Source: Geosiphon pyriformis uo1 (lineage: Eukaryota; Fungi; Glomeromycota). Taken from it: a stretch of 64,000 nucleotides of DNA. The stretch is from the NCBI GenBank assembly GCA_016748015.1, contig JAAOMT010000504.1, positions 106,781 through 170,780 on the forward strand. Direction: 5' to 3'. The notes under the pieces were generated by a model that worked only from the letters and a program-made list of their open reading frames with translations, did not search any database and was not told the DNA's origin. This document shows positions 48-63,073 of the stretch, piece after piece. Within the stretch, counting starts at the first letter, position 1; each line of letters starts with the position of its first letter. A program made the position numbers and the translations under genes.

Positions 48-1424
48 ATGAATATACAAAAATACCAACAACTCCAATATTATATAGATATTCAACAGTT
101 TAAAGAGAAATTATCTCAAAAAGAACAAAAGAACATAAAACAACAATCAAAATATTTTATCAACCATTAAAATATACTTTATTAGAAGAACAAAAGAAAT
201 TCAGATCAACCAACCAAAGTAATTACAGAACCAGAGAAAGAAACAATATTATTCAATATGCATTCAGATCCAACAGCAGAACATTTTTACAAAAAAGCAA
301 CCATGAAAAGAACCAGAAAAAGATACTATTGGCCATCAATGTATCCAGACATCATCTAATATGTTCAAAATTGTGATGTTTGTCTGAAAAAAAAAGAAAT
401 AAAATCCAGTAAACTATTAAGACCAATCAAAGTGAAGCAACCCTTTAATTGCATTGGAATTGACTTAGTCGGACTATTAACAATCACCAGCAGAGACAAC
501 AGATATATTGCAGTAGTCATGGATTATCTTACTAAATAACCAGAAACAAAAGCCATTCAAAAAGCAGATGCAGAATCTATTGCCAAATTTGTTCATCAAG
601 ACTTGATTTGTCAATACAGATGTCCAAAAAAATTGTTATCTGATCAAAAAACTCACTTTGTGAATAGAACATTAACAAAACTGAGTCAAAGATTTGGAAT
701 AAAAAAACTATTATTATCACCATACCATCCATAAACAAATGGGTTAATTGAACAGTTCAACTAAACATTATGTAAAGCAATAGCCAAGATCAGCCAAAAA
801 AACCAGGATGAATAGGATTTGTTTATATTATCAGTATTATTTGCTTATCAGACAATAAAGCAAGACACTACACAAACAACACTATTTAAATTAGTATATG
901 GTAGAACAGTAATATTACCAGTTAAGATAGAAGTCAAAACATATCCAACAGAACTAATAACAGAAGAAAATTTTCAAAAAACATTGTTGAGAAGAACATA
1001 TGACTTAATAGAAACACTAGAAAACATATGGCAAAAAGCAGCTAATAACATCCAAAAGTTACAAGAAAAACAAAAAGAAAGACATGATAACCAACTATCA
1101 GAGAAACCAGTTAAATTCAAGATTGAAAACAAAGTACTTTTACATTATACCAAAGCGGAAAAACAATGGAGTGGAAAATTCGACCCCAAATGAAATGGAC
1201 CATTTCACATAGAAAAAATTTTAGGAAATAGAGCTTATAAATTAAGGTGAAACAACAAAATTTTAACCAAGGCAGCACATAGTGATCAACTGAAACAATA
1301 TTACCATAAAGCATTATCATCTACCAGTAATATTCCACAATTAGGAATACAGAGAATATTAATTAAACCAAATAAAATTCCACAAGATTTAGAACCAATT
1401 ATAATCATTGAACCAAACACATAA
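48..1424 (+). pseudogene. int: Integrase ORF of element A (decayed)
   Basis: ATG at 48 after RNase H stop at 16-18; includes track ORF 819..1193 (VLFAYQT...FKLVYGR); several stops. Confidence 0.9.
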
Positions 1425-1484
1425 AATCAAACAACCAAAAGAGTATATAAAGACATAATATATGCAACAAAAGACAGCAGAAAA

Positions 1485-2114
1485 ATGGAAATTATTGATG
1501 ACATTCACTTATTAGCACAACAATTCTTTTAATTAATCCAACAACAAGAGATGAAAATTACAATCAACCAACAAATTATCAGATACACATACACCAAAAA
1601 AAAACCATGAGATAAAATACAGAGAAAAACAAAAAACTTTGTTAACAAAATAATTACAAAAGTGAAATTGGCAATAGAAACACAACCAAAAGTCACCCAA
1701 TATCAAAAGTTGACTATGGAAACTTGGAATTGGTGGATACAACAATTTTCAAAAAACTTTTATTACTTTTATTTGGGACAATACTTGAACATTTAAGGCT
1801 TGTACACAGATAAAACAAAACAACTATTTAATACAACAATACTACAACAACTAGAACAATTTGTGAGAAAAAACAATTTGACTACACAAGCAAAAGTCAT
1901 TTATTGGCTATACACTGAATTTCAAGATCGACCAGAAATCTTACTCAATCCAGAAATGAACTTTATTACCATTAATCAAATGGGAAAAATGACCAACTCT
2001 CAATTTGAAGAATTACAGAACAAGATAGCATAAATAATTCTTGAAAAAAAAGTTCAAGAAATACTCAAAGACAAAGAATTAGAATTAGGAGATCTTAATA
2101 GAGCTCAATATTAA
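1485..2114 (+). pseudogene. ORF3 type 1 (~209 codons, unknown function, env position)
   Basis: One frame MEIIDDIHLLAQQ...DLNRAQY* with 4 internal stops; includes track ORF 1800..2033; GAGTATATAAAG at 1441-1452; homologues in B, C, D, G. Confidence 0.8.
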
Positions 2115-2128
2115 AAAGAAGGAAATAA

Positions 2129-2990
2129 TATTACTCATAAAATATAGAAGATATATTAGCATATAAATTAGCCAATCAAAAGTAGCCATAGTAAATGTGA
2201 AATTCCAGGATTTCACTCAAAAAAATTACAGAATTTCAGGAATTTCAGGATTCTTGTACAAAGAATTGCAGGATTCCAGAATTTCAGGATTCCTCTCAAA
2301 GAAATTGCAGAATTTCAGAAATCCTAAAATTCCTGGTATGAAAAATTAAGGAATTGAGGAATCTTAATTATATATATATAGTGGTAATATTAGAAGTAAA
2401 AAAGAGAGACTAAACAGTTTAGATTTGATCTAAGCAATCTTCCAATTCACAAATATTAATAAATAATTATTTGATATTTCAATCCACTCTCCATTATCAA
2501 CACTTTATGTTGATAGTCTTGAATACTTAACTACACTAGAACAATAGCTCTTGATCACAGCTATTGACAGGATACTAACAATTATTGCCTTGGCTTATTT
2601 CTCTTATTTTTTTTTATTTTTTTTTTTTATTTTTTTTGTTTTACTAACTTGATTAAAAAGATTCACACACAGAGATACTAATGTCAGAATATAGCACTGT
2701 TAAAAAACCCATGAATATGAATAGACACTCAGAATTGAGGATATCTTACTAAAAAGATTACCAGCCATCATGCTAAGAAAAAAATTAACAAAACTGCAGT
2801 TTTGGGAAGCTATGGATAAAACAATTAATTAAATTTCTGTTCATTATGCAAAAAACTTCAAATCCAAATCTTCAGATTGATAAAACCTTCAAATAACTAA
2901 AACCTTCAGATATCAACATTATTATATCAATTAAGTACCAAGTTAAAGATTTGTTATTTGCTTTGAGACTTCAAATAATGATCTGTAATA
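2129..2990 (+). repeat. 3' LTR of element A (U3 type 1, GAATTCCAG-like repeats)
   Basis: TATTACTC start (decayed TGTTACTC), TGTAATA end, (TA)n TATA at ~2369-2380, AATAAA at ~2458, homologous to the other LTRs. Confidence 0.95.
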
Positions 2991-5542
2991 ACACAATGCC
3001 AAACTGCTCTAATAAAAGAACTAATTTGTAATACAAAGGCTGACCCAAGATACTAGACATTAGACATTTATCAGATCCATAAAAAGCACTAGGCAAACTG
3101 TTTGCCAAAAATAACTCATTTTCTAAAAATATTTTTATTACTCCAGCCAAAAAATTGTTCATCAGACTAACATGCAACCTGACAGAAAACTGTAAAAAAT
3201 TTAGAAAGAACTATCTCAGAACTTGCAAATCCAAAAATCTATGATCAAACAAATATCCAAAAATACTTTGGCCATTAGAAAATAAAATTAGCAAAGCCAA
3301 TTTCTTTTTTAATTGCACCTGTTTAAAAGATTTCAAACCATACAAGGATAGATGGTACAAAACTTCACTGAAAAAGTCACATGGTAAACCAGTCTTGGTT
3401 CTGAGATTCTTTCTAATTTTTACATCTTATTTACAACACACTTCTAAAGATACAAAACTAAACTGTATATAATAGCTAATTATGAACTGAAAGACTGCCG
3501 AAACCAAGTAGCAAAATTGTTTGTCTGTAATAGTTTTTCTCAACATCACATTAAAAAAAACCTAATATCTGTATGAACTTGAACCAAACTGGGCTTAAAA
3601 AGACTCTTAGTCAACAAAAAAATACCCAAATATTAGTGTAACTCACTTCTTTTAGCATTCAAAATTGGCAAATCATTGATCAATAGTGAAGTATTTTTGA
3701 CACCTTAATTGATAAAAATAGCCACCATCTTATCATTATTAATTGAAATGTTATTAATCTTAAAAAACTCACTTTCAATATTCAAAATATACTGTGTAGA
3801 AGCCTAATAACTTTTGACCCAAATTGTATTATTTACAAAGACACTAGCAGCCAAAAAAAAAGTCTTTCCTCTATCCACCTCAATCCTGCCAGACTTTGCT
3901 ACAAACTTAATGTCTATCCTATATTTATACAAGTATTCATATCTCTTTATCTTATATAAGAATAGATCATAAAAAATCCTCCAAAGAAATGGAAAAAAGA
4001 CTTTTTCTTGATCCAACTCATTATGTACTCTGTAAACTTTTGAGAGCCCAAAGTCTGTCATCACTCTGTTAATTTAATCCTCATGTGTGTTACCAAAAAA
4101 CTGAATAAATTACTTGCATATTTTGATGCAATACAGACTAGCTTTCAAATAATGCTATTCTACTAAGTTATAAGTTTTGTACATGTCTTATAACACCAAT
4201 CAAAGTTCTTTATTTTTTTCCAAGGCATCTTTAACAACAGATCCAATAACAAAAATAGGAGACTGAGTTGAAATGTCTTTTAGTATTGAAAAATTATTAT
4301 CATAAAGAACACCAAATTTGCTACAAACTAAAGATATCTGATCAAAAAAAATTTTAGATAAAATTTTATGTGCTGTATCAACTAATGCAATAGATCTAAT
4401 ATTTATCAAAACACTATTCTATTCATATGGTTTTGGGATCATTGAGACTCATGCTCTTTTTTAGAGAGTTAGAACTGCACTTAGACTTAAACACAAATTC
4501 AACAGCCTTAAAAGACATGCCAACATTTTCTCACTACAGTGTTTTCAAAGTTCATTAGGCATTCTTGACAGCTTAGCTGCTTTATTATTTGGCAAATTAT
4601 CAACAACCAAAGACAACTCTTCCATATTAATTTTTATTATCACACCAAAGAAAGCATCATTTTTCACATAATTCAGAGACATATATTGTCAAGCCCAAAG
4701 ATCAGGCATTTTTGTAAGCACAGATCACTTTCTTGTCTATTTTTTTATAATTTCATCAATCTTGAACTTAATCTTATCAGGTTTAACTACCAGCTTATTA
4801 TCTATTACCAAATGATCTAAAACAACTTTGTAAAATAAACACTCCAAAATGCTTTTAATCATTCATTTTTTATCTAAACAGAAATTTTCTATATAACAGT
4901 CAATTGCTTTTCTGATAGTTGTATCTTCAGTAATCTTAGACTCACAGTACTTAAATTTCCAATATTTTTTTTTTACCACTAATAAATGCTTAACCATATC
5001 CACCAAACTTGCACTATTCAAAACCAGGTTAGAAACTTCGAATGCTTCAACTTTATCAATAGTTGACCAGATTTTAATAAGACAGTTAAAGTTTAGAAGA
5101 TCTCCAGAAATCCAACATTTCACAATTTTTACAATAAACAGCTCCAATTTATAGAATTTTGAAGATTGTTTGTTCTTTAAACAATTGTACTCACTATACC
5201 AAATCTTTAAAAACACTGCATTAATAGCCTGTAACATAACTTCTTCCAGCAGTTTCCATATTGTGTCCAAGTTATTAACATTTTTAGCATTTTTAATCAT
5301 GTTAAATTTAATCAGCAAATCAGTAGAAGATTGTTTCTTGAAATTCAACCACTAACTGTTATCTGCATCCCCCAACTTGAATTTTCACTGGTTTTGGTTG
5401 ATCTGTTTACAAGCACTAAAAAGACAAGCATCCAGAAGCCTACCCAAACCAATCAAAACTGAAACTAATTTATAATCTGTATCAAAAAATCCCAACATAT
5501 TATTGATTTTATGTGATGTAATTGCAGACACTAGATTCTCAC
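2991..5542 (-). mobile_element. LINE-1 ORF2, middle segment (endonuclease C-terminus, RT), between Gypsy A and B
   Basis: Minus-strand RT remnants: IRSIALVDTAHKILSKI, LDQEKVFFPFLWRIFYD (QG-SP region), ASVFVNNTIW (FVDD); APE C-terminal FDTDY (TDH-like). Confidence 0.92.
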
Positions 5543-14070: not shown

Positions 14071-14704
14071 ATAGAAATACCAGACCATATTCAAACTTTA
14101 GCTTAACAATTGTTTCAGGCTTTAAGTCAACAGCAAATAAACATAGAAATTATTATCAACAACCAAACAATTTGTTATCAAAACACCAAACAAAAAGAGA
14201 AAAGTATACTATACTAGTGACCATAAAAACAATCAATAAACTGGTCAGATAAAATAGTAGAGAAAGTAAAGAACACATTTGGAAAGATAACCATCATGAG
14301 TTCAATAGAAAAACTGGTGAAAAAAAATTAAAACCAATAGTTAAACTAACTTCTAATACCTTACTGCTACTACTAATTGAGACAAAAAGTAGATATTCAG
14401 AAGTTATATCTTAACAAATCCAAGAGAATCTTCAATCAAAAGATAATTTGGAATATTGAAGACATTATTAGAAAAAAAACAAACTTGACACTACACATCA
14501 AGACTATTTATCAACTACACACTATATTTCAAACTACTCAGAAGTATTGTTACATTCTGACATTAAACAATAATTATCAACCAATAAAGAAAAATGAACA
14601 ACTCACAAATTAAAGAGATAAAGAATAGAGTAGAACAGATACTACTTGAAAAAGAAGTATTTGACATAATTCAAAATAAAAATTTTAATGGAGCTCAATA
14701 TTAA
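14071..14704 (+). pseudogene. ORF3 type 2 of B
   Basis: (M)EIPDHIQTLA-QLFQALS...FNGAQY*; TATA-like GAGTATATAAAG at 14026-14037; includes track ORF 14377..14613. Confidence 0.75.
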
Positions 14705-15566: not shown

Positions 15567-18245
15567 CCACTTATAAAGATGAAATCTATCACTTTTTTGA
15601 CCTTTCAAAATTGCTCTAAGTAGGAACTTTCACCAACAAATGTTCATTAAAAGTATTGACCAGGCCCAAATTCAAGCAAAACTTGAAACTAACACTTCTC
15701 TTGAATTTATTTTCATTAAAATTACCACTTAAAACCACAAAAAAACTAAAATTAACCACCTTAGAAATCATAAAATTGATATTAGCAGCTTGGCCAAAAC
15801 AAACACCAATGAATGCACCAACATAAAGACCCAAAATCATAACTGAAAGTTTGTTCTTGAACAGAAAATACACAAAGATCAACCAACCAAGAACTTTCTT
15901 CACTTTAGACATATAACAAACCAAAAAAATGTTCATAATTATGGCAACCCCAGTACCAAGAAAACCTGCATCCAAACCAAAAGTGAAAACCCAAATTCCA
16001 TCAAACTTATTCATGATTCATGGCCTAATGCTAGATCTTAATTTTGTCTTTGTAATAATTGAAACCATATTTCCTGATTTTTTATGCCAACAAATAACAT
16101 CTTCCTGTTTTGCAGGAACATTGATATCCCTAATATTGTATATAATAAATTTTCAAACCAAATTACTTATTGAAAATTAGAGAAAGCTGATGAATCCAAT
16201 CCAGAGTACAAATGATCCAATTTTTTCAAAACTAAATTAATTAATACTTCTAATGCCACTATTTTTGACTCCAAACCACTTACCTTGATGGTCAAAATCT
16301 TAGAACTACTAAAGCTAAAACCAGATACATCATTATTAATACCAAAAAAAAAAAGAACAGATGGCATTAACACATTATCCACAGCCATATCCAAATTCAA
16401 ACCCGAATCCAAAGATGTAGAAGCAACAGAAAAGGAAGTAAGAAATAAAGACACCAAAGACACCAACTCAATAAAGCTTAACTTCCTTAAGATACCAGAA
16501 ACTTAGTCTACCAGAAGCTTCAAAGAGTGCTTCAGAAAAGCCAAATGGTTATGTAAAACAGAGTTACTAAAGGAAGCAAAGATTGCTAAAAAGATTTTAG
16601 CACTAGAAGATGAACCAGCACCAAAAAAAAATAAAAAACCACATAAAAAGAAGAGCTACTAGCAACTTGGGCTCAAGCTTTACCACTAAAAAAAACTAGG
16701 CAGGCAATTGGGGCCTGCTTTTTCTTATATATATTGGCCAAACAGATTTGATCTTAAGCCATTACCACTCACTTACTGTGTACACCAGAATTTCCACTCA
16801 AAAAACAATCACTTGAAATGTGATTAAATTGTTTACACAATGCACAGCAAGCCAAAAAAAGACCAGCCCAATGCAAATTCATGTCTTTGAAAACCAAAAC
16901 AGAGCCAATAGCAGCCAATCTAGATGCCTTACTATCAAAACAAATTACAGTGCATTTATTACAAATATAAAAACCAGAATTATGGCCAATGAAATATGTT
17001 TTTTTATTATATGATTCCAACAAACTAAAATGATTATGAGCAGATATACCAACTGGAAGAGTATAAAGCAAAGCCCAATGCTGATCTCTGAATACTTATA
17101 ATTGTTTATTATTAATAGCCAAAGTCATATGCACAGAATCTTTTTTCATAAAAATCAACCACTTGGATGCAACCAAACTGGTAACATTAAGAGATTCAAA
17201 CTCTACCAAAGCTTTTTGCTATAGGCTAATTAATTGTATTTTAACTGAAATCATCTTATCAAATTTGGAAAAAACAGATTCTACAGCCAATTTGAGAAGA
17301 TTAACTGGAATTTTTTTGATAATTATATCCTAATTTGAATAACTGCTTGCTTTTCTAACATTATTGTTTACTATAATTTTTTTACAAATTGCCAATTTTT
17401 TAGCCTTATTTAGACTCAATTTAAATGTAAAAGAGAATCTGATGATCTCTAAAAATTTTAAGAAAATAAAAGCTCTTCCAAAACTATTGATTTGATAAAA
17501 ATTTTTTTTGATTGAAATTAACTTATTACTACTAGTTTTTTTAAATACAGCAGTTAATTCAACATCCAAAGCAAACAATTTTACTGGCTTGAAGCTTTAT
17601 TTTTTTAGGACAGATGATTTGACAGATGGCAGCTGATTGAAACTATTAAACTTTGGAAATAAAAGACTCAGCACATTTTCATTATCACTTATAATGTCAA
17701 ATATTAAGAGTTTTTAGAGAATTATCTAGTATGTATGTTCAGATACAAGTTTTTTTCAATGTAGCTTTATTTATATTATCATCTTTACCTAATTCTGAAT
17801 AGCTTGTTTCTTCAGCAACCATGTTTGCCATATTCTTAACATCTAAAAGATTATTCACACTGCTAATAACACTGCCAACTTTGCTTTCTTAAGATATTAC
17901 AAGCTTATTGCTAGAAACACCAATATTTTTCAGGGCCAGAGGGCCAATAAACAAGTTAACCAAAACACCACCAGCTTCAAGTTTCTTTAGCTTTTTATAC
18001 AATGCACCATAAGAGTAAACACTTTCTACACACTTTTTTTTGGTATTAGGGCAGATCTCAAACTATTTAAATCCGAATTAGAGCCACCAGCAGAAAAATT
18101 TACTAGTTCTATGACAATAAAAACAAGTATATTAGAAGAAATAATTATGAAAAGACAAAAGAGAAAGAAAAAAAGGAGGTATTAAATCTTCAATAAATTT
18201 TTACTCTTGTTGTGGTCAAGGGATTAATAAGAAAAAGATTGTCAA
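15567..18245 (-). mobile_element. LINE-1 5' part: 5'UTR, ORF1 (18112-16167), ORF2 APE endonuclease N-terminal part (16170-15567)
   Basis: ORF1 with CALCKQFNHISSDC CCHC knuckle and RRM-like segments; ORF2 with NIRDIN, ITKTKL (TETK), GTGVAII, GLYVGA, SGNFNE (GDFN) APE motifs; 5' boundary approximate. Confidence 0.9.
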
Positions 18246-23352: not shown

Positions 23353-26300
23353 TTATCTCCTCCTTTTAATATTAAGTTCTATTAAAATTTTCATTTTAAA
23401 TTAGTTTCATAATTTTTCTTTCTAGTACTGTTTGTTTAACTCTGCTTCTTATATCTTTGATTTGTAAATTGTTCATTCTTTTCCATTGATTAATGATTAT
23501 TGTCTTTATGTTAGAATATAGCAATATTTTTGGGTAGTTCTGAAAAATCATGTATAGTCAATAGATTGTTCTAATATGTAGTGTCAGATTTGTTTTTTTT
23601 CCAATAATATCTTCAATGTTTCATATTATCTTTTGATTGAATATTCTTTTAGATTTGTCAAGATATAACTTCTGAATATCCAACTTTTGTTTTACCTAAT
23701 AGTAGTAGTATGATATTAGAAGTTGTTCTATCTACTGTTTCCAGTTTTTTTTGAAAGTTTCTCTGTTGAGACCATGATGGGTATTTTCCCAAAAGTGTTT
23801 TTTACTTTTTCTATTATTTTATCTGACCAGTGTTTGTTTAGTTCTGTGGTTGCTAATATAGTGTATTCTTTGCTTTTTTTTCTTGTTTGATGTTCTGATA
23901 GCAGATTGTTTAGTGATTAATGACAATTTTCATGTCTAATTGTTGTTGATTTAAGACTTGAAATAATTGTTGAGCTAAGATGTGGATATGATCTAATATT
24001 TCTATTTTTTTTTGTTGCTTTTGTCATGTCTACTATGTTTTTATATACTCTTTTGGTTAATTAAATTGACATGTTTAAATCAATAATTATAATTGGTTCC
24101 AAATCTCATGGAATCTTATCTGATTGGATTAGTGTTTGTTATACTTCTAGTTGTAAAATATTACTGGTAGATAATAATACTATGTTGTGGTATGGTTTTA
24201 GTTAATCTCCATGTGCTGCTTTGGCTAAAATTTTGTTGTTCTATTTTAGTTTATAAGCTCTATTTGCTAGAATTTTTTCTATGTGAAATGATTTGTTCTA
24301 TTTGAAATCAAATTTTTGACTCCATTGTTTTTTTGCTTTGATATAATGTAAAAGTACTTTGTTTTTAATTCTGAATTCAATGGGTTTATCTGATAACTAG
24401 TTATTGTGTTGTTTTTTTTGTTTTGTTTGTGACTTTTGAATATTATTAGCTGCTTTTCATTATTTGTTTTCTAGTGTTTTTATTAAGTCATATGTTTTTC
24501 TTAACAGAGTTTTTTGGAAATTGTCTTTTGTTATTGATTCTGTTGAGTAAGTGTTAATTTTTATCTCAACTGGTAACATTGCTGTTCTTTTATATACTAA
24601 TTCAAATAGTATTGCTTGTGTAGTATCTTGTTTTATTGTCTAATAAGCAAATAATATTAATAATATAAATAAATCCTATTCATTCTGGTTTTTTTGACTG
24701 ATCTTGGCTATTGCTTTACACAATGTTTTATTGAATCTTTCAACCAATCTATTGGTTTATAAATAATATGATAATGATAATAGTTTTTTAATCCCAAATC
24801 TTTGACTTAATTTCATTAATGTTGTATTTACAAAGTGAGTTTTTTGATTTAATTACAATTTTTTTGGACATCTGTGTCGACAAATCAGATTTTGGTGAAT
24901 GAATTTGGCTATGAATTCTGTATCTGCTCTTTAAATTGCTTTTGCCTTAGGTCATTTTGTAAGATAGTCCATGGCTACTGCTATATAACAATTGTCTTTA
25001 CAGATTATTGTTAATGGTTCTACTAAGTCAATTCCTATTCTGTTAAATGATTGTCTCATTTTAATTGGTTTTAATAGTTAATTGGGTTTTGTTTCTCTTC
25101 TTTTTTAACAGGCATTACAATTTTGAACATATTAAATGATGTCTGAATACATTAATGACCAGTAATATTTTTTTTTGGTTCTTTCTATGATTACTTCTTT
25201 ATGAAAATGTCCTGTTGTTAGATTTGAGTGCATGTTGTATAGTATTGTTTCTTTTTCTAATTCTGTAATTATTCTGAATGGTTGATTTGAATTTTTTCTG
25301 TTTTTCTGATATAATATATTTTGGTAAATGATAAAATATTTTGATTGTTGTTTTATGTTGTTTTGTTTTTTTTGAGATAATTTTTTTTTAAACTGTCAAG
25401 TATTAATATAGTTTTAGAGTTATTGATATTTTTGTGTATTCATCTTTTGTTATATTTTTGAATTGAAATATTCTTAGATTTGTTTCATTTGTGATAAACC
25501 ATCAGTGTTTCTGTTTTTTTTTCCCTTTTTATAATATACTGTATATTTGAATAGTGAAAGTTCTATTTTTTATCTGGTATAGTGGTCATCTCCAAATTTT
25601 TGTTTCTGGATTGATGTTAATCCTTTGTGATCAGTATATATATCAAATTTTTGGCTTAAGTATTTTTTTTATTTTATGACTGTCCAATAGATAACTAAGT
25701 ATTCTAGTTCTGGTGTTCCATAATTCTTTTCAGCCAGACTCAAACTTTGGCTAACATATGTTATTGGGTTTTCTCTTCTATTTAGTCTTTTCTGCAATAA
25801 TACTGCTCTCAATGCTTGATCTAATGCATCAGTAGTAATAATAAATGGCTTGCTGTGATTTGAATAGATCAATACTAATGCTTGAATAAGCTTTCTTCTT
25901 AAAGTGTCAAAAGCTTCTTGTTGTTCTTCAGTTTATTTATATTTTACATTCTTGGCTTGAAGTTGGTAGAGTAATTAAGCCAGTTTGAAAAAGTTTTGGA
26001 TAAAGTGGCAATAATATCTAACAAATTCCAAGAATGTTCACAGTTCTGTCAAATTTGTTGGTACTGAAAAGTTTTTGACAATCTCAATTTTGTCTGAATC
26101 TGTCTTGATGTCATCTTTGCTCATAACATGTCTTAAAAATTTCAATTCCATTTTGCCAAAAAAGCACTTGGTTGTATTCAGTTTTAATCTTGTTCTTTTT
26201 AACTTTTTAAACACTTGTTGAAAATAATGTAAATGATCATCAAATGTTCTTGAAAACACATTGGTGTTATCCAAATATATGACTACTGATTTCCATAGCA

Positions 26301-29300
26301 GTCTAATATAAACAATTTTTATAAGTTGTTGAAATGTGGCTGAAGCATTGGTTAAGCCAAATAGCATGACTTCAAATTCGAAATTTTCTTTTCTAGTAGT
26401 AAATGTGATCTTTTTTTTGTCAGCTGGATTCATGGCTACTTGCCAGTAACCACTATCTAAGTTTAATGTAAAGAACCATTTTTTTCTTTCAAAAGCATCA
26501 AATAATTTCTGGATTTGGAAAGTGAGATAGTTGTCTTCATAAGTTACACTATTGAGTTTTTTATAATCCACACAAAAGCAGATTTTTTCATTTTTCTTAT
26601 GGACTAGTACCATTGGTGACAACCATAGACTTATTGATAATTAAATTAATCTGTTGTCCAATATTCTGTTAATTTTTTGTTGGATGATTTTATAGCTGGC
26701 TAGTGGTACTTAGTAGAATTGTTGTTTAATTGGCATAATATCTTTAGTCTTGATTTGGTATTGAATAATGTTAGTTCTGCTGAATTCATTTTCATTGGCA
26801 AAGATATTAGTAAAATTGTTAAGCAATATCTTAAACTGCATTCATTGGGATGGATCTAAGTTTCTTAAGTTTATCTGTTCTAATTGTTCTGGTTAGAGCA
26901 AATAGTATTTTTTTTGTCCATATATTGTTTATAATATGATATCCACATATCCACAAAGTTGTGAAAAATTTGGAATAGTGCTTGGTGGTTGGTTTTTAAC
27001 TTTAATGCTTAAGTATCCAATAATAGTTCTACTTAGTATTTTAATGGTGTCTCTCATTGTGTTGTGAATGAGAATTTTGATATGTTTGTTGTTTTTAGCC
27101 AGTATGTAGAGATTGGTAATAGCAATTTCTCTTAATTCATAAATACTTAGTTTTGCCTTAAAAATTTGGAACTGATCTTTTACTTTCCTTTCTATGATTA
27201 CTAAATACTGATCATATAGTAAAATAGAAATTGATTAATAAGTGGAGATAATTTCTTCTTTGTCAATAACTTCTTCCTCTGCCATATTAACTGGTATGTT
27301 TATTTTACTCATGGATTTGAATCCACTTATTTTTTTTGCTGTTATCTGTAACTCCTCTCTTTTTTTCACTAACACTAATTCAGCTATTTTAACCAAAAGT
27401 AGGAATATTGTCTGTGCTATTTTTTCATTTGGTTAAATAATATACTCTTTTTTTGAGTTATTTTGTAATATTACAATAATATTTTCTAAATATTCTGTGT
27501 TAATTATTTTTCTCTTAATGTTGATTTTCTTCTTTGCTAAACTAGATCTAAATGCTAATTGTACTATGGTTGTTGTCAAAACTTCTAGTGCTATTTTCAG
27601 ATCAATACAGATGTGTGAATATGATTCTAATTTGATGGCATTCTTTCTGAAATATTTCAAATCAAACTCTGCATTAGTATCATATATGTGTTTTGGCATA
27701 ATACTTTTATTATTATCATTGAACCATTTTAGTTCTTGCTTCTTGGAAAGATTAAGGAATACAATATATTGTTTAGGGTTATAATCAAAGTTTAAATCAT
27801 TGTTATTATTATTGTCAATTTGAACAGAGCTGAAACCATTGTTATTGTCATTGTTATTGGAGTTTGAACCAGGATTAAATACTAATTTTAATTCTGATAC
27901 ACAGCTGTTAATTAGTTCTTCTTCTTCTGGAATTGTGTAGATTATGTATGGTAGTGGATTGTAAATAAAGTAACACTTATTGCAATATTGAAAATTACAT
28001 GAAATCAAACAGTAATTACATAGTTAGATGTTTAATTATTCTAAACATTGTTCTTGCTCTTTTCTGGTGGGTGCTAAGTTTTGATAGTGTTCATAAAATT
28101 GTTCTGAGTTCATAGTGTTGAAAACAATATTGGAGTTTGAAGTCCAATTGAGCTCTATGAATTCTGGCAGATTATTTTTAATTTCTCTATTAATGTGCTT
28201 TTAATTTTAGTGAGTGCCATTTATTAGATTTTATCATCATCATGTGGACAACTATTTAAGTGTTTTATAGCTCTTTTTTAGACAGTGTCTATAGACATTC
28301 TTTTTCTTATATAATTACTGATTAAAATTGTGTATTAACATGATTCATTGCATATTTTTTTATGACCAGGAATGTTGTTCCATATTTTTTTGTCTAAAAA
28401 AGTTTTTTTACAAGCCAGACATGGTTTATTGTCTTATTTTTCTTGTCATTTAGGTTATCTAAATTGCTTAAGAACATATAGGCAGCAGTAATACTTAGTT
28501 GCTATCAGCTACTTCTCATCATCATCACAACATGCATCTATTGATAACAATTTCTTGTCACAATCAACACATATTAATTTAGGTCAATGGTAAGTTGAGT
28601 TAGAGCAATTGGTAGTGTATGGTATATAAGTAGAGATTGTTGCTTGGGGTTTTTCTTCTTTTTTTTTTTCTCTTTTTTTTTTTTCTCTCATATAGGCACT
28701 GGTGGTAAGCTATTATAGTTATCATTAGCCCATAAGACTTGGTAGGCTTTCCAAGTAGGTCTTTCTTTCTTTTCTTCCAATTTAATTAAGGGGTTTTGAG
28801 TGGTGTTGGTTGGTTTGAAATGACCAAATATGGCTGGTACTCTAGTGTGCTAACCATTTTGGCTAAGTTGTAATTCTTGAGTGGTTCAGTTAAGCACAGC
28901 ATTTGTCTCAGACAATCAGTCATTACCAATTAGAGCTTGGTACTAAGTAGTTTTTATAATAAGAACTTTAATTGGTATATTGATGCTATTGACTTCAATT
29001 AGAAAGTTGTTGATTTTACCAATTGGAGTTTTGGTGGCTCTATCAGCAGTAATAATTCTGGTACTAACAGTATGATCAATTCAGTGATCTAATTGGTCTA
29101 TGAATTGCTTGGTAATAATGCTGTCTGTTGAACTGCTATTTAAGATCAGTTTGATGAACTGACCATCAATCTTAGCATTGATGTACATTGTGGTAATGGG
29201 TTTTGTGTCTAAAGCAGCTCTACTAAATAATAGATTTATTAACAGTTACTTGGATTCAAAGGAAAAGATTGTGGATAGTGATTCATTATTAGTGATGGTT

Positions 29301-30176
29301 GCTGGAAGTATGTTATTGGTAAGTAGCTTTTGGTTGGTTTTCTGATGATTGGATTGGGTGTCTTCTGGGACAACCAAGAAATTTAAATAGTGTTGGGTGT
29401 TTGGGTTTTGGGCATAGCTAGTTTCCAAATTTTGCTGTCACAATCCAGATTGTTGGGCTGCTAAACTAAGGATCAGTTAGTATATTACTATTGTTGATTG
29501 CCAATTTTGATGAATCTGCATAGTTCTTAGTCTCTGGTTTCTATTTTGGGGTAAGTTCTGTGATGGTGTTGGAATTGGTTAGGGTTAATAAATTAGCTAA
29601 GTTTGAGATGGTTAATAAATTACTGAAGCTGGGTGTTGATAGATTGGTGCTTAATAAATTGGTTACATTATTTAAGAGTAATAAGGCTAATATTAGTATT
29701 GTTAATTTGATAGATTATTGATGTAATTCGGGTTTTGAAATCTGCAATTGGAGTTTTGATATTGAGTTTTTAATTATTAGTTATTTAACCTTAACCAGCA
29801 ATCTATTTTTAGATGTTTTTGTTTACCATAATAGTAGCAAATACATGTTTTCTGCAGCCATGGTTGATTTAATGAAAATGACTGTGACTAATTCTGAAGT
29901 CAATTGGAATTTTCTGAATTTTCATGACATTGTGACAGCTGATAAATAATCTGATTGCTATTATTATTAACTAAGTATCTCTCTAGTTTCTGATTAATCA
30001 AATCACTAAATTGTTTCAACTTAGAATTCAATTCAGATAATCTGTTCATTACTAGGTTTACGACTTGAATTTGTCTGACTTCTAGCTTAACTGATTCAAA
30101 ATCTTTGGTATAAATAACTGTATTTTGTAGCATACCTGAGTGTATTAGCCATATTCATTGTAGAATAGTACTGTAT
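22511..30176 (-). mobile_element. Gypsy element C (3' LTR, ORF3 type 2, integrase, pol, 3' half of gag), cut by D; 5' part missing
   Basis: LTR 22511-23352, PPT 23353-23367, ORF3 24005-23366, integrase 25443-24061, RT track ORF 26038..26622, dUTPase ~27310-27700. Confidence 0.95.
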
Positions 30177-31000
30177 TGTTACTTATAGAATATAAAAATT
30201 ATATTAATATATATATTAGCCAATCAGAAATAGGTGTAGTAAAATATAGAATTTCATAATTCTTTTTAGAGAAATTGCAGAATTCCAGAATTACAGAATT
30301 CTTATATGAAGAATTGCAGGATTCCAGAATTGCAGGATTTTAGGAATTCCAAGATTTTTGGCATAAAGAATTGAGGAATTGAGGAATCTCAATTATGTAT
30401 ATAAAGTGGCAGCATTAAAAACAAAAAAAAACAAACCTCTTAGTTTAGATTCAATTAAAAGCAACTTTCTAAATTACAAATATTAATAAATAATTATTTA
30501 CTATCTTAATCCAATTTCTGCTATCAATACTTCATGTTGATAATAACTGATACTTAACCATACTGGAACAATAGCTTTTGATCATGGCTATTAACAAGAT
30601 ACTAACTTAACTTGCCTTGGCTTAATCTCTTTATTTTTTTTATTTTCTTTATTTTTTTTATTTTCTTTGTTGTTTATTAATTGATTAAAGATTAACATGC
30701 AAAATTATTAATGTTAAAAAGACTGGTAAAAGACCTGTGAAACAAGGATAGAAACTCATAAAATTGAAGATAGCTTACCAGAAAGATTATCAGCCATCAT
30801 GTTAAGAAAAAAATTTAATGGAATTGCAATTTCAAAAAGCTACTAAAAACAATCATTGAATCTCTGTCTATTATATAAAAGACTTTACTCAAAACCTTCA
30901 AATACAGAAAACCTTCAGATATTACCAACCATATTAGCTATTGAGCACCAAGTTATGAGTTTGTTATTTATATTAACATCCCAAATAATTATTTGTAACA
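30177..31000 (+). repeat. 5' LTR of D (U3 type 1)
   Basis: TGTTACTT...TGTAACA followed by PBS. Confidence 0.95.
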
Positions 31001-34000
31001 TTTGGTGCTCTCTTTAAGGTATAATTCTACAAAAAACCAGCACTAATACCAATCAGTCAAAAGTGGTAGAATCAGAAAAAATAAGGACAAACCATTTAAG
31101 ATTCACCAAATTCTTATTTTAATATTACTGTTAACACCTGGAATTAATCAGCAATCACCTATTAGCAGAATTAGCTTTCAATTTCTACATTAACAAGAGA
31201 ATTTTCTATTTTCTAGGAGTACTAGTAAACATTAGATCAGCAAAAAAAAATTTCTACAATGAATTAATTCAAAACACCAGCCTACAGTAAATTACAATTT
31301 TATGTCAATTATCACTAAGATCAATAGAGAAATTGAAAATCACACTCAACAAAGATATTCAATCACCTATGCAAACAAAGACAAAGGAAAACTACAAATA
31401 CCAGCAGTAACACTTCAAAAAATACAACCATCTACTTGAAAAAAAATCAGAATTGAGTCACCAATCAACTTATCATACTGTTATATACCCAGAAGTCCCA
31501 TTAACATTTCATTAACAGACATGTCTACCTTAAATACAAAACTATTATTAGTCTAACTTCTATTTCAAAGTAAACAGAAGAAAGCAAAATTATTGGAAAT
31601 CTATGGTAATTATTTTGAAGAATTTAAATTGCAATTGCCAACACTATTAGGATTTTGATTACTACCACTTCAACCAAATTTCAGAACTGCAAGTCTCTGA
31701 GAAATAACTGAATCAGAAAAAAAGAAAGATAACAATCAGAAATTTAATTATCAAAACCCAATTGTAGAAAATCTAGAAGTCAAAACTCCGAATATTTAAA
31801 CTCAGCAAACTCAAAATGATCAAAACCCTGATTTCATTAATCAGCAAAATTTACCTTCAGTAATCATGATAAATTAATTACCAATTAACCCAATTGCCAA
31901 ATTACTACAGCCAATACCACCACAGCAACAACCACAACAATCATTTTAATAACGACCAGTATAACAGTCACAATCAATTATACCAATGGCATATGCACCC
32001 ATTACCAAGCTTGAGAAATTTACTGGCAAAAAAGATGATACCCAAGTCTGGCTAAATAATGTCACCAAAGCCATAACTGCTAATAATTGAAATGACACTA
32101 GAGTCCTTCAAGCAATTTCATACTTCTTACAAAATACTGTCAACTTGTGGTATCAAAGCCTCATCCAAAAACTTCAAACATTCAATGAATTCAAAATTGT
32201 TTTTTTAAGATATTTCAGCAATAACAACAGCATCAATTATCTAACAACTGCCTTTACCACTATAAAGCAAGGAAAAACTGAAGCCATTACCACTTACTTG
32301 AAACACTTCTATCACAATCTATGCTAAATACAAATTATTAATACTAACTATTTTACTCCATCACAAATTTTAAATCAATTCATTAGAGGCCTGCACAGCA
32401 ACATACTCCAATACATATGTTTATTATATCTGGTAGATCTTCAAGCCATAGTTACCAATGCCAGAGATTTTAAAGCAGCAGAGCTCAAAGTCAACCACAT
32501 TCAAGCTGTGAATTTAGTAATAAATAGATTATCTGACTTAGATTCCAAATTGAAACAATTTAGTAATTCAATTAACCAAAAACTTGAGAGATACTTAGCT
32601 AACAATTAAGCAATTTATCAATCTTCACAATGATGTTATAATCAAGAAAATATGAATCACTTTCAAAATCAGTTGTATCCCTTGTTATCAACAAATTAGC
32701 AGTGACAGCAAAAGATACATATTTTTCACTACTGTGATAAACAAAGACACTTGAAAATTGATTGCCAATTAAGAATAGATAATTAACAATTGGGAAATTA
32801 ATATCAAAACCCCAATTACCAGTTTCAAATTCCAAACTACCACTATCAAGATTAATATCAACCAAATTACCCACCAATAACATAACAATTATACTCACTT
32901 CCAATCTATCAGGCACTAGCACCTGTAATTTATCAACCACCACAGTCCCAAATAATTTATTAGACTCCACCAATTTAAACACTACCATCAAACTCAGCTC
33001 AATTAGTCATTGAAACCCAAAGACCAAGAGTCATCCATACTCAATAAAACTGAAGATCAGTGATAATCATGCACCAACTAATTCTCAGTTTTTCAACCCA
33101 ACCATCAAAATTACGACAACAGAGTTTGGGAACTGGATATATTCAAAATTCGAATTCCCAAAACTATTTAAGCCTTTTAATTAACCCAAAAAATGTTTCA
33201 TCTAACAAATTAGAAACCAACCAAAACTCTTTTATTCACAATATTCTACCAATAATTATTACCAAAGATGAATCATTGGATGCAATATTCTTATTTGAAT
33301 TTAAGAAACTGTTAGTCACACCCTTATTTAATGAAACTGTTCTTAAAAAAAACCTATTATTGCCATATACACTAATGCTAAAATTGATAGCCACTCCATT
33401 AAACTCATATTAAACAGCAGATTAGCAGGCAGCATCATTACACAACAACTCATGAACCAATTAGGTTGCCGAGTTGATTGTGCTGCCAATGCTCAAATTA
33501 TTACTACTAATAGAGCCACAAAGACTCTAATTGACAAAATTGACAACTTTCAATTCAAAATCAATGGCATCACTATATTTATCAAAGTATTGGTGATAGA
33601 AACCACTTAATATCAAGCTCTTGTTGATAATAACTGGCTGATAAAAACCAATGCTGTATTTAATTAGACTATCCAAAAATTGCAACTCAGCCAAAACAGC
33701 CAACATATATAAGTACCAGCCATTTGCAGCCACTTTAAACCAACTATCATGTGACTATTGATAAAATTGAAGGAAAAAAAAAGAAACTTACCTGGGAAGT
33801 CTACCAAATATCCTGGGCTAACAATGACCATAATGAACTGCCACCAATCCTAACTTGAGAAGAAAAGGAAAAAGAAAAAGGCAAGGAAAAAAAAAAAGAG
33901 CCAGCACAAGTCATTACTTTTACATATATACTATACACCTATATACCACAACAACAGCCAAACTATTGCTAACCAAATTTTATATGCATTAATTGTGACA

Positions 34001-37000
34001 AGAAATTTTTATCAATAAGCACATACTGTGATAACAATAAAAAATAGCCAACAGCAAAAAAATTATATTGCCATCCATGCATTCTAGAATGATTTAGATA
34101 ACCAAAAAGACAAGGAAAATGAAATAACAAATCTTGTCTTGTCTGTAAAACCATTTTGCTAAGAAATATGAAATAATATTCTTAAACATAGAAGAATATG
34201 CAACAAAATGTGCCAATATACTATCCTAATAAATGACTGGGTATGCAAAAGAACTCCAATTAACAACACATAAAAAAGAGCATTGTAATAATTGGAAAAA
34301 TATCTTCATAATAAACATGAGATCTGGAGAATGGTAAGTGCAAAAGCAGAAAGTACTACTTTTAATGAACTACTGAAAATTAAAAACAACTCATTATTCT
34401 TTCCTGAACCCAAATATGTCCCAACTTTTGATATCTTTGGCAACATTAAAAATGACTCAGAAGAATTGTACAAGCACTATTAGTGCCTGGCACCAATCAA
34501 AAAAGAGCAAGAATAATGGCTAAAACAATTAAATACATGACTATACAAGCATTGTTTGATTTTTAATAACTTTGAATATTGTAATAAGTGTAATTTTATT
34601 TACAATTCATTACTGCACATAATCTACACAATTCCTGAAAAAGAAGAACCAATTAGCAGTTGTACATCAGAATCAGAATTGATATTCAATCTCGATTCAA
34701 ACTCTGACAATAATGACAATAACAATAGTTCCAGCTTTGTTCAAAATAGTAATAACAATAACAATAATTTAAACTTTGATTCAAACTCAGAACAATATAT
34801 TGCACTCTTTGATCTTTCTAAGAAGCAAGAACTGAAATAATTCAGTGATTACAATAAAAGTATCATGCCAGAATCTATGCATAATACTGATACAAGGTTT
34901 GATCTGAAATATCTAAGAAAAAAAGCCATCAAATTAAAACCATATTTACACACTTGTATTAATCTAAAAATAGCAATAGAAATCTTAGCAACAACAATGG
35001 TTTAATTAACATCTAAAAGTAGTTTAGCAAAAAGGAGAATCAATATATGAGGAGGAATAATTGATACAAGATATATAAAAAATATTATTACAATGCTACA
35101 AAATAATTCAGAAAAAGCTTATATTATAAAGTTTAATGAAAAAATAGCACAGACAATATTTCTGCCTTTGGTTAAAATAGTTCAGTTAGTACTAATGAGA
35201 AATAGAAAAAAATTAGGAATTACAGTTAGAGGGATAAGTAAATTTGGATCCATGAATAGAATAGACATACCAGTTAATATGGCAGAAAAAAAAATTGTTG
35301 ACAAGAGAAAAATTATCTTCACCTGTCAATCAGTTTCTATTTTATTATATAACAAGTATATGTTAGCATTGGAAAAAATAGTGAAGAATTAGGCAGATTT
35401 TTGAAGCTGAACCAACCATTTGTAAATCAGAAAAAATCAGGCTTACCAATCCTTACATACTAGCCAAAAACAAGAACCACATCAAAATTTCTATCTACAA
35501 TACAACAGGAAATGTTATTGAGATACCAAAAAAAACTACCATCAGATATTTAAGCACTGAAGTAGAAAACCAATCACCAAACTTTATTCCAGATTTTCCA
35601 CAACTTTGTGAATATGTGGACATTATATCACAAACAATATACAGACAAAAAGAATATTATCTGCTCCAACCAGAACTATTAGAACAAATAAACTTGAGAA
35701 ATCTAGACCCACTACAATATATGCAGCTTAAGATGTTACTCAATAACTTTAACAACATTTTTGCCAGTAAAAATGAATTTGGCAGAACTGATATCATCTA
35801 GCATTAAATTAAAACTGGAGATACAATGCTAATTAAACAAAGAGCATACTGAGTACTACCAGCAAGCCATGAAATTATTTGAGAGAAAATCAATCAAATA
35901 TTAGACAACAGATTAATTTAACTATTAATGAGTTCATGATTATTATCAATGTTATTTGTTCATAAAAAAAAATGAGAAAATTTGCTTTTGTGTAGATTGC
36001 AAAAAATTCAATAAAGTAATTTGTAGAGACAATTATCTAACTTTACAGATTCAAAAATTATTCAATGTTTTTGAAGAAAAAAAATGGTTCCTGACATTGG
36101 ATTTAAACAGTGGTTACTGGCAAATAGCCATAAATCTAGCTGATAAGAAAAAAATAGCATTCATAACTAGAGAAAGAAATTTCAAATTTGAGATAATGCC
36201 ATTTGGCTTGATGAACACTCCAATTACATTCTAATGGCTCATGAAAATTGTTTATACTGAATTGCTATAAAAATTATTAATCATATATCTGGATAACACT
36301 AATGTATTCTCAAAAACATCTAATGATCATTTTTATTATCTACAACAAGTGTTTGAAAAATTCAGATGTATTAAATTGAAATTAAATGCAAACAAGTGTT
36401 TCTTCAGCAAAACAGAACTGAAATTCTTACAACATATTGTAAGCAAAGACAACATCAAAACAGATTCATACAAAATTAAAATAGTCAAAAACTTTTCAGT
36501 ACCAACCAACTTAACAGAACTCAGAGCATTCTTAAAATTTGCAGATTACTACTGCTGCTTTATTAAAGACTTTTCTAAACTGGCTTAACTACTTTACCAG
36601 CTTCAAACCAAAAATGTTAAATATAAGTGAACAGAAACTTAGCAAAAAGCTTTCAATATATTGTGAAAAAAGCTTATCCAAGCACTAGTACTAATTTATT
36701 TAGATTATAGCAAGCCATTCATTATTATTACTGATGTATCAGGTCAAATATTGGGAGCTGTACTATCTCAGAAAAAACCAGATAGAAGAGAACACCCAGT
36801 AGCATATGCCAGTTAAAGTTTAAGTCTAGCCAAAAAAAACTATAGAATACTAACATTAAAACACTTAACTATTTATTGAGCAGTTATTAAATAAAAAGAA
36901 TACTTAAGCCAGAAGTTTGATGTGTACACTAATTACAAAGAATTGACTTCAATCCAAAAACAAAAACTTGAAGACAATTGCCATACAAGATAGAAAATAG

Positions 37001-39171
37001 AACTTTCACTATTCAAATATACAGTACATTATAAAAAGGGAAAAAACAATGGAAATGCTGATGGTTTGTCAAAATGAGACAAATTTAAGAACATTCCAAC
37101 CCAAAAATATAACAAAAAATGAATACACAAAAATACCAACAACTCCAACACTATATTAATACTCAATTGTTCAAGGAGAAATTATCTCAAAAAGAACAAA
37201 ACAACATAAAACAACAATCAAAATATTTTATCATTCACAAAAATATATTATATTAGAAAAACTAAAAGAATTCAGATCAACTACTTAGAGTAATTTAAAA
37301 CCAGAAAAAAAAACAATATTATACAACATGTATTCAGATCCAACAGCAAAATATTTTCATAAAGAAGCAACTATAAAAAGAACCAGAAAGAGATATAATT
37401 GGCCATTAATATATCTAGACATTATTCAATATATTCAAAATTGTGATGTTTGTCAGAAAAGAGGAGGAATAAGACCCAATAAACCATTAAGACCAATTAA
37501 AGTGAAACAACCATTCAATTAGATTAGAATTGATTTAGTTAGACCATTTACAATAACCAGCAGAAAGAACAGATATATTGCAGTAGCCATGAATTATCTC
37601 ACTAAATAACCAAAAGCAAAAGCAATTCAAAAAGTAGATGCAGAATTCATTGCCAAATTTGTTTATTAAGATTTAATTTGTCAACATAAATGTCCAAAAG
37701 AATTATTATCCAATTAAAAAACTCACTTTGTGAACAGAAAATTGGCAGAATTAAGTCAAAAATTTGGAATTAAAAAACCATTATCATCACCATATTATTC
37801 ACAAACCAATGACTTAGTAAAAAGATTCAACAGAACATTGTATAAAGCAATAGCCAAAATCACCCAAAAAAATCAGAACAAATGAGATTTGTTTATATTA
37901 TTAGTATTATTTGTTTATTAAACAATAAAACAAAACACTATACAAGCAACATTATTTAAATTAGTATATAATAGAACAACAATACTATTAGTTAAAAAAA
38001 AAATCAATACATATTCAATAAAACTAATAACAGAAAACAATTTCCAAGAAACATTGTTGAAAAGAACATATGACTTAATAGAAATACTAGAAAACAAATA
38101 ACAAAAAGCAGCTAATAACATCCAAAAAAAACAAAAAAAATGGTATGATAACTAATTATCAAAGAAACCAGTTGAATTCAAGATTAAAGACAAAGTACTT
38201 CTATATTGTACCAAAGCAGAAAAACAATGGAGTGAAAAATTTGACCCCAAATAAAATAAACCATTTTATGTTGAAGAAATTCTAGAAAATAGAGCTTATA
38301 AATTAAAATAGAACAACAGAATTTTAACCAAAGCAGCACATGGGAATTGACTAAAACCATACCACAATATAGCATTATTATCTACCAATAATATTCCACA
38401 ATTGAAAGTACAAAGAAGACTAATCCAACCAAATGAGATCTCACAAGATTTAGAACCAATAATAATTATTAACACAAATACATCAAAATGAAACATTGGA
38501 ACTCTATATAAAAAATTAGCACATAACAAAATATACTAAAAAAATGGAAATTACTGATGATATTTACTCATTAGAACAACAATTTTTTTAACTAATTCAA
38601 TAACAAAAGATGAAAATTACAATTAATCAACAAACCATTTGATACAAAGATACAAAAAAAAAGAAAAAACCAGAAAACACTATCAACAAGATAATTACAA
38701 AAGTAAAATCAGCAATAGAAACACAAACAAAAGTTATATCATATCAAGAATTGACAATAGAAATTTGGAATTGGTGAATACAACAATTTCCAAAAAACTT
38801 TTGTTATTTCTATTTGGGACAACACCTGAATATTTAGAACTTGTATATGAATAAAACAAACCGATTATTTGATACAACAATACTACAACAACTTGAACAA
38901 TTTGTGAAGAAAAATAATCTAATCATACAAATACAAGCTATATATTAATTACAAGCTGGATTTCAAGACAAACCAGAAATATTACTCAATTCAAAAATGG
39001 ATACAGTTACCACTAATCAAATGGGTAAAATAACTAATGCTAAATTTGAAAAATCACAGATCAAAATAACCCAAATAATTCTCGAAAAAGAAGTTCAAGA
39101 AATAATCAAAGAAGAAAAAGTAAGAGAATTAGAAGATTTCAACAAAACTCAATATTAAAAAAATGGAATAA

Positions 39172-39999
39172 TATTATTTATAAAATATAGAAATCATATT
39201 AGTATATACATTAGCCAATCAGAAATAGGCGTAATAAAATGTGAAATTCCAGAATTCTTTTCAGAAGAATTGCAGGATTTTAGAATTACAAGATTCTCAT
39301 ATAAAGAATTGCAGAATTCCAGAATTTTAGGATTTTTCTCAAAGAATTGCAGAATTCCTGATGTAAAGAATTGAGGAATTGAGGAATTTCAATTATGTAT
39401 ATATAGCAGCAGCATTAAAAGCAGAAAAAAACAGACCTTTTAGTTTAGATTTAATTAAAGCAATTCTTCAAATCACAAATATCAATAAATAATTATTCAC
39501 TATCTTAATCCAATTTCCATTATCAACACTTCATGTTGATAGTAACTGATACTTAACCACACTAGAACAATAGTTCTTGATCATGGCTATTAACAAGATA
39601 TTAACTTTACTTGTCTTAACTTAATCTTTTTATTTTCTTTATTTTCTTTATTTCTTTTATTTTTTTTGTTGTTTACTAATTGATTAAAAATTAATGTATG
39701 AAATTATTGATGTCAAAAGAACCAGTAAAAGACCTATAAAACAAGAGTAGAAAATTCATAGAATTGAGGATAACTTACTAGGAGAATTACTGGTTACTAT
39801 GCTGAAAAAAAATTTGATAGAATTGCAATTTCAGGAGACTACTAAAAACAACTATTAAATCTCTGTTTATTATACAAAGAACTCCACCCAAAACCTTTAG
39901 ATACAGAAAACCTTTAGATATTACCAATCAGATTAGCTATTGAGCATCAAGTTATGAGTTTGTTATTTGTATCAACATGCCAAATAATTATCTGTAATA
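39172..39999 (+). repeat. 3' LTR of D
   Basis: TATTATTT...TGTAATA; shares D-specific AAGTTATGAGTTTGTTATTT with the 5' LTR. Confidence 0.95.
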
Positions 40000-48243: not shown

Positions 48244-48908
48244 CTTGTGAATGAAATAATGATAGTGAGGCACAAGTTAAAAAAATGACAGCGAGAAAAG
48301 CAGTGTAGATGGGATGCAAAATTTAAAATAAAATTAGAGCATTGACATAAGAATATCTAAAAAGAATCATCGATCATAATATCAGAAAACCCTATTACTG
48401 TGTCTACTCTATCCTACGGAGGTAAAAAGGAGAGAACGACGTACCTGAAATATGGACCCAGTTGATGGAATGAAACAGGGCGTACGCGAATAGAGGACAG
48501 CAATAAGTTCACGAGTTAGTCAACATCGAAAACATTCCCATGAACGGATGAATAAACGAGGCAGAAGTGATGCATGGAAAATAAATGCCTACCTTCGTCT
48601 AACAAGATAGGTTTGACAACAGAAAATAAGAGATGAAAAAGAGAAATAACCACTTGTTAGTCAGCTATCGGTCAATAACAGAGACGCATAAACATGAACC
48701 AAAGAACACACGTTGAATGGAAGGAAAAAGCAGTACAGGTAGATATGTGAACACAGTCGTTCAGAAAGTGCATTACACAAAAGAGAGGAGAATAAGACAC
48801 AGACAGCAAAAAAAAGAAACGTCGTTAGTTGTCATAAACTCTACTCTATATACGCTGTCTACTCTAACCTAGTACATACTACTCTACCACCCCAACACCT
48901 AAGCAACA

Positions 48909-48928
48909 NNNNNNNNNNNNNNNNNNNN
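48909..48928. other. Assembly gap (20 N)
   Basis: Run of N. Confidence 1.
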
Positions 48929-49683: not shown

Positions 49684-49841
49684 TTCTCTTTTGTTAATCT
49701 CTTATTCATGATAAAAGCAAAAATTTTTCATAAAAATAGCTTTTTCTTTTTTCTACTTTAGTTATTTCTTTTAATATATCTTCTTTTGTTACAATAAAAC
49801 TGGTGGACTTATCTGCTAGTGGTTTTAATTCTGGCTTAACT
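49684..49841 (+). mobile_element. LINE 5' stub (5'UTR and first ~16 codons of ORF1)
   Basis: Collinear with reverse complement of ~18065-18240; (M)KLVDLSASGFNSGL vs LINE-1 (M)ELVNFSAGGSNSDL. Confidence 0.7.
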
Positions 49842-50684: not shown

Positions 50685-50834
<150 letters not shown>

Positions 50835-54895: not shown

Positions 54896-54915
54896 TTTGG
54901 TGCTCTCTGTGAGGT

Positions 54916-63060: not shown

Positions 63061-63073
63061 AAGAAAAAAATAA

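Follow-up and report, generated by a model that had tools for sequence, protein, structure and literature searches.

The 64,000-nt stretch of Geosiphon pyriformis DNA analyzed here (the window) is AT-rich, with a CpG observed/expected ratio of 0.09, and contains one LTR element in several copies, all of them decayed. Near its beginning lies the 3′ part of such a copy on the forward strand, comprising a decayed integrase frame with its own Met (48–1427; Pfam Integrase_H2C2, rve, and SH3_Tf2-1), the position of the integrase stop codon (1428–1430), a spacer (1431–1484), an open reading frame that we call ORF3 (1485–2114), a polypurine tract located from the sequence (2113–2125), and a 3′ LTR of type 1 (2129–2990). 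An array of GAATTYCAG-like units (2196–2340), which are candidate ORF3 binding sites, occupies the type-1 U3 upstream of the LTR TATA box at 2371. A full-length element at 54012–63935 encodes gag, protease, dUTPase, RT, RNase H, and integrase in that order (Pfam, with Ty3_capsid and SH3_Tf2-1 included), and because of this domain order, with integrase last, it was assigned to Ty3/gypsy. Its two LTRs are 86% identical, with TGG after the 5′ LTR and a purine tract before the 3′ LTR. ORF3 is therefore placed after the integrase and before the 3′ LTR in a Ty3/gypsy retrotransposon that carries a dUTPase. Long stretches also separate the protease, dUTPase, and RT of the full-length element (57600–58700 and 59075–59700), and the segment just before RT matches Spuma_A9PTase (E 0.0002, 22.1 bits, cut-off 21).

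In this copy ORF3 runs from an ATG at 1485 to a TAA at 2112–2114 (209 codons) with no frameshift, and four in-frame stop codons, at codons 16, 42, 104, and 183, mark it as decayed. The first-pass annotation, made from the letters alone, had described a frame of about 630 nt between integrase and polypurine tract that ends in AQY and a stop at the tract; such a frame was indeed present in all five element copies with a 3′ end (1485+, 14071+, 24005−, 38544+, and 62430+), the stop of the A-Q-Y terminus overlapping the tract, and a six-frame profile search of the window found no copy beyond these five. Stops or frameshifts occur in every one, leaving 0/5 intact. The other two type-1 copies lie at 38544–39158 (+; six stops and an 18-nt deletion) and at 62430–63060 (+; a frameshift, inside the full-length element), and the two type-2 copies, both frameshifted and both with a type-2 U3 downstream, lie at 14071–14704 (+; palindromic repeats ATTGCTCAGCAAT in the U3) and 23366–24005 (−). 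The protein motifs quoted in the annotation do exist, as a mixture drawn from different copies: ARAIYKLY belongs to the 62 kb copy, with AKVIYWLY standing in its place here, and the YFYLGQ core, present in type 1, is limited to that type.

Open versions of the gene were found among the proteins fetched, as automatic gene models with introns as annotated: eight near-full models of type 1 and 21 full models of another lineage. Many ORF3 models begin at an upstream M-V-D, which corresponds to a minority letter in run X1 (G at 1457, 21% of depth), a status that CpG decay likely explains. Fused ORF3 forms among the profile-search matches resemble chimeric gene models. At the other end of the gene, types 1, 2, and 4 stop at A-Q-Y/F and other lineages read through the tract into the LTR. 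The DNA word just 5′ of the purine tract (window 2101–2135; 3086–3148 in L001, a near-intact metagenome element) is common to distant lineages in differing frames, so that the AQY end is partly a DNA-level signal.

In Ty3/gypsy elements a single open pol frame usually covers RT, RNase H, and integrase, and a split pol is unusual. Here the integrase Met lies 8–10 codons past the RNase H stop in all five window copies and in L001, so that a single pol frame was not found in these elements. At the start of the window the RNase H stop (16–18) is followed by the integrase Met at 48, pol being split in 5/5 window copies, and the same arrangement occurs at 772–799 of L001. A literature search for a split-off integrase frame in Ty3/gypsy yielded no such case among the results listed.

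The boundary between integrase and ORF3 bears on whether the latter is a gene of its own. An extension of Pol was first suspected, since the codons at the junction look like decay products of CGA: they read CAA (this copy), TGA, TGA, TAA, and TAA. The stop in four of the five copies nevertheless favors a separate gene. In run X1, possibly the source sample and not independent, position 1428 is T in 69,120 of 83,830 depth (82%), which also favors a separate gene; the C that is left in 18% of depth would suit an extension, and 1429 is G in 57% (letters unphased). As a Pol extension, ORF3 would form a C-terminal addition to the integrase where other elements have a chromodomain, translated directly or by reading through the stop, and the TATA-like box would be merely the codons V-Y-K. 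ORF3 is in frame with the integrase in two of the five copies (1485 and 62430), as such an extension would have it, but both type-2 copies are out of frame, and the 18-codon spacer is without coding constraint (pN/pS 1.08 vs. a null of 0.72, with 909 of 1000 permutations at or below the observed value) and has frame-shifting indels in three of the five copies. L001 has an open 230-codon relative of ORF3 that begins 316 nt past the integrase stop in another frame, and in a second metagenome element, L002, about 700 nt plus an extra ORF intervene; the start Met of ORF3 is homologous in all lineages. Pfam returned no chromodomain match for ORF3 as an integrase tail. Because a stop and an unconstrained spacer precede ORF3, and because L001 has it in a different frame, we are confident that it is separate from pol. 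The unconstrained spacer, the frame of type 2, and the layouts of L001 and L002 led us to reject the integrase extension, a reading already largely refuted and now very improbable. The extra ORF of L002 (425–811, 128 residues) had no Pfam match, and a TATA-like box lies at 314 of that element.

The coding status of ORF3 was assessed from its substitutions. The annotation had named a lack of purifying selection between types 1 and 2 as the outcome that would count against an accessory protein; purifying selection was found, with a GY94 omega of 0.23 (205 codons, five copies) and of 0.29 for type 1 alone. Shifting the ORF3 frame gave omegas of 1.49 and 1.65, and the comparison regions gave 0.43 (integrase) and 0.91–1.07 (three LTR frames). 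The observed pN/pS was reached by none of 1000 column permutations, for all five copies as well as for type 1 and for type 2, and all five indels that divide the two types within the ORF3 frame are multiples of 3. Constraint was concentrated in codons 1–36 (the N-terminal part) and 76–165 (the helical core); the linker and the C-terminal helix, each taken alone, showed no significant constraint (99 and 283 of 1000). A McDonald–Kreitman-style contrast of terminal vs. between-type changes was not significant (P = 0.38), because the copies come from already diverged sublineages. ORF3 is almost certainly a real gene that was formerly under purifying selection.

Every relative of the protein with a named source is from G. 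pyriformis, a glomeromycete fungus. A search with the read-through ORF3 sequence returned 92 matches (of 183 candidates), all labelled G. pyriformis, and profile searching across 1.84 billion representatives also gave 92 matches, with eight of the 10 clusters looked up being Geosiphon; P0175, a low-complexity profile match, looks spurious. Later searches gave 49 matches (48 Geosiphon) and then 218, of which 117 were Geosiphon among the 120 matches listed. These sequences form at least seven lineages, 23–48% identical. The two largest of the other lineages escaped the type-1 profile, so that the spread of the family found here is a lower bound. One motif set is retained throughout, with conserved residues (P0003 numbering) I7, Q12, L14, Y92, Y94, G98, G128, K129, N131, A138, R141, F146, L153, N164, G167, and I181. 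We found no description of the protein in the literature, although it may be mentioned in the Geosiphon genome papers or their supplements.

The position between pol and the polypurine tract is the sole point in favor of a diverged Env. Judged by hydropathy, the one test applied here for signal peptides and transmembrane segments, none of 11 proteins has a signal peptide or membrane helix (highest 19-residue Kyte–Doolittle mean 0.27–1.29), and with 0–3 cysteines and about 210–240 residues the family has next to no chance of being Env, an identity that we rejected on hydropathy and that the first-pass annotation had likewise doubted. What that annotation had called an accessory protein in the env position thus proved to be real, selected, non-Env, and separate from pol. 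The same position, together with the retention of ORF3 in every lineage seen and its long C-terminal helix, could also suit a particle protein, structural or for movement, that aids spread within the coenocytic hypha; the family has no membrane segment or signal and no capsid-like fold match, and we think such a role improbable.

No confident match to a described domain, the other outcome that would have spoken against a new accessory protein, was obtained in any search. Pfam matched the core of no ORF3 member above cut-off, PDB sequence searches gave 0, 0, and one match (E 0.94), no PHROGs family was matched by more than one of 11 members, phage tblastn gave just two matches (E 8), and no ORF3 relative was found in the viral contigs scanned. 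The whole-protein model (pLDDT 74) is uncertain in its N-terminal part, and its best structural match (Z 5.6) reflects generic helices; a model of the 136-residue core (pLDDT 83) is almost wholly helical. Foldseek returned no match at E ≤ 0.001, and an additional structural comparison none at Z ≥ 2. With one protein, Atlas placed a cluster of 98 unnamed, mostly Mucoromycota proteins at the top (0.94). The ORF3 protein is a member of an unnamed family, soluble and helical, with no clear fold match.

A function in exporting, protecting, or packaging element RNA, with ORF3 as an RNA-binding accessory protein like CERV of Cer1 or retroviral Rev, would fit a small, soluble, and mostly basic helical protein (pI 7.7–9.7 in the Geosiphon versions, with two acidic metagenome versions at 5.4 and 5.9). 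The two best rows in the structural comparison of the core are ribosomal chains (Z 4.4 and 3.9), a closterovirus coat-protein cluster came up in Atlas at 0.93, and the element may have to handle its RNA in additional ways because integrase occupies a separate frame. The coat-protein row, however, shares 156 of 256 features, below the tool's mark of 170, and the fold searches returned no coat protein. On this view the U3 repeats would have their role at the RNA level or no connection with ORF3, and type-specific palindromes 5′ of the LTR TATA box are not among its predictions; we consider it unlikely.

Before testing, we had presumed a likeness of ORF3 to DUF1016_N (PF17761) and to helix-turn-helix domains of ParB type. 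DUF1016_N was matched below threshold by seven of 95 members (best E 0.004) in the register expected, all located matches coming from two related ORF3 lineages; the match of P0243 reached 15 bits against a Pfam cut-off of 32.8. A profile–profile test (hhalign) against a shallow, 13-sequence DUF1016_N alignment gave a probability of 1% in the wrong register, with a score of 16.8 that falls within those of block shuffles (up to 19.8), and a reverse HMM test gave at best 11.9 bits vs. 8.8 for reversed sequences. Among the 50 weak structural matches listed were the DNA-binding domains of SopB (Z 3.2, rmsd 4.9, 90 aligned), Spo0J (Z 3.0, rmsd 4.6, 89), and KorB (Z 2.8, rmsd 2.8, 52). The motif and helix run of ORF3 resemble those of DUF1016_N and the ParB-type domains, all below cut-offs, but ORF3 has neither a nuclease nor a ParB N-terminal domain. 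Because these Z-scores are under the tool's own background, with ribosomal chains in the top two rows, and hhalign failed, we treat the helix-turn-helix as a lead.

Upstream of ORF3, a TATA-like box (1444–1451, TATATAAA) is a candidate internal promoter. The annotation had placed such a box about 40 nt before the start in most copies, and it was borne out: TATATAAA occurs in four of the five copies, the fifth having TATAAAAA, and TATAWAW lies 37–42 nt 5′ of the ORF3 start in 5/5 copies, which share descent, including the 38 kb copy with its diverged flanks. In shuffled spacers TATATAAA arose in 41 of 2000 and TATAWAW in 277 of 2000. Seven of the eight TATA columns are invariant vs. 17 of 31 other A/T columns of the spacer (P = 0.10, not significant), and TATAWAW occurs 7–12 times per 8 kb of element interior. 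Since 62% of shuffled L001 and L002 spacers contain TATAWAW, the single occurrence in each is at chance level, as is a 10-nt match around their TATA boxes (805 of 1000 shuffles reach 10). A CCAAT at 1395–1399 (+), 88–92 nt 5′ of the ORF3 start in 5/5 copies, overlaps E-P-I codons of the integrase tail and hence may be kept for the protein. From these positions we lean slightly toward a promoter belonging to ORF3 itself, with a positionally kept TATA box.

The two element types differ over one segment, which extends between the start of ORF3 and the TATA box of the LTR. Integrase similarity is 0.82–0.83 between types and 0.78–0.85 within them, and R-U5 is shared, while ORF3 similarity is 0.57–0.63 between and 0.74–0.80 within, and the U3 differs too. 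The type-1 motif occurs 5–10 times in each of six type-1 U3 regions and in 0/3 of type 2, and the type-2 palindrome (the type-2 unit contains a 13-nt palindrome) 4–6 times in each of three type-2 U3 regions and in 0/6 of type 1, in a comparison of just two types whose motifs were defined from these same LTRs. The exchange between element types has involved ORF3 and the U3 repeat array jointly; because the two adjoin, one recombination event suffices to explain it. What is new here is that ORF3 and the U3 array differ together between types while integrase and R-U5 are common to both, and that in L001 a single 7-mer is found 5′ of ORF3 as well as in the U3.

Our tentative reading, which we hold at somewhat less than even chances, is that ORF3 encodes a regulator, driven by an internal promoter, that binds the LTR of its element in the manner of foamy-virus Tas. 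The TATA box about 40 nt upstream would drive transcription of ORF3 from a small internal promoter; the helix-turn-helix-like core, with a conserved G-K-x-N turn followed by A-x-x-R on the next helix, would bind the type-specific U3 repeats; and the bound protein would activate the LTR or protect it from methylation. The 7-mer TTGCCCT has two occurrences 5′ of the spacer TATA box of L001, three in its U3, and none in 2139 nt of pol, and one of 3000 spacer shuffles scored as high (with all 20 LTR-repeated 7-mers allowed); this shared 7-mer could instead be the site of a host factor. The shared-site pattern is confined to L001: none of the five window copies has its type-specific U3 motif within the 354 nt that precede ORF3, and the part of L002 examined lacked the pattern as well. 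A basic pI, as in the Geosiphon versions, fits DNA binding, and the acidic pI of the two metagenome versions speaks against it.

The annotation had offered an anti-silencing factor as an example of what ORF3 might be. A protein that acts through host methylation or small-RNA proteins, with no sequence-specific binding of its own, would suit the heavy decay of elements in this host, with its low CpG ratio, and lineages as little alike as 23–48% identity on one scaffold are as expected in an arms race. Against such a protein, Pfam gave no enzyme motif or known partner domain, and the omega of ORF3 gave no sign of positive selection; we regard it as quite unlikely. A regulator that pairs with the repeats of its own LTR is favored by the data over anti-silencing in itself. 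The fuller proposal, of a fungal LTR lineage with a Tas-like transactivator circuit that combines an internal promoter, a new helix-turn-helix-like family, a protein and sites swapped as a cassette, and a separate integrase, is rather doubtful when taken as a whole.

Extra ORFs after pol are a known class in LTR retrotransposons, mostly without function, in the passages of PMC7264820 and PMC5408684 that describe them. The sense-oriented additional ORFs treated there resemble ORF3 in being separate, family-wide, and in the env position, and three bdelloid lineages that have them carry dUTPase, as does the ORF3 host element. ORF3 differs from those described in these passages in being fungal, in matching no Env, GDSL esterase, or DEDDy nuclease in Pfam, and in belonging to an unnamed family that goes with a type-specific array in U3. 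Foamy-virus Tas (Bel1), in the part of PMC3798896 that deals with it, is likewise a small gene just 5′ of the 3′ LTR with a TATA box just upstream, and has sites in both the internal promoter and U3, for which the candidate shared sites of L001 would be the counterpart. The ORF3 element, however, lacks env, the likeness is one of analogy and not descent, and the promoter and binding of ORF3 are putative; Tas was not among the matches listed in Pfam and BFVD searches with ORF3. CERV of Caenorhabditis elegans Cer1 is another novel non-Env accessory protein of a Ty3/gypsy-type element, but according to PMC10309623 it is made from a spliced mRNA and exports genomic RNA, and we found no homology to ORF3. 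Gene23 of maize Grande, as summarized in PMC7264820, is an accessory gene with its own promoter that encodes a nuclear protein; it is antisense and from a plant, whereas ORF3 is sense and fungal, with a candidate promoter.

LTR elements make up 41.2% of the G. pyriformis genome, as given in the part of PMC11952901 consulted. If the proposal is true, the expansion of the family under heavy methylation would be explained by a regulator encoded in the element itself and the sites that match it, and this would bear directly on the open question of what role non-Env extra ORFs play. Several hundred "hypothetical" Geosiphon gene models are also identified as transposon pieces.

The window holds further material around these elements. 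Two long open frames lie outside them at 46645–48322 (−), one kinase-like (Pkinase E 5e-7, under cut-off) and one of 335 residues with no Pfam match, and they are likely one host gene. A run of 20 N at 48909–48928 is an assembly gap. Segments at 4863–5351, 15616–17095, and 42169–43934 resemble, by eye, decayed pieces of another retroelement (endonuclease- and RNase H-like), and further LTR copies and gag pieces are found at 51120 and 49841–53977, respectively. The 38 kb element (30178–39998) starts where the 5′ part of a reverse-strand type-2 element (28654–30173) breaks off, an arrangement that suggests a nested insertion.
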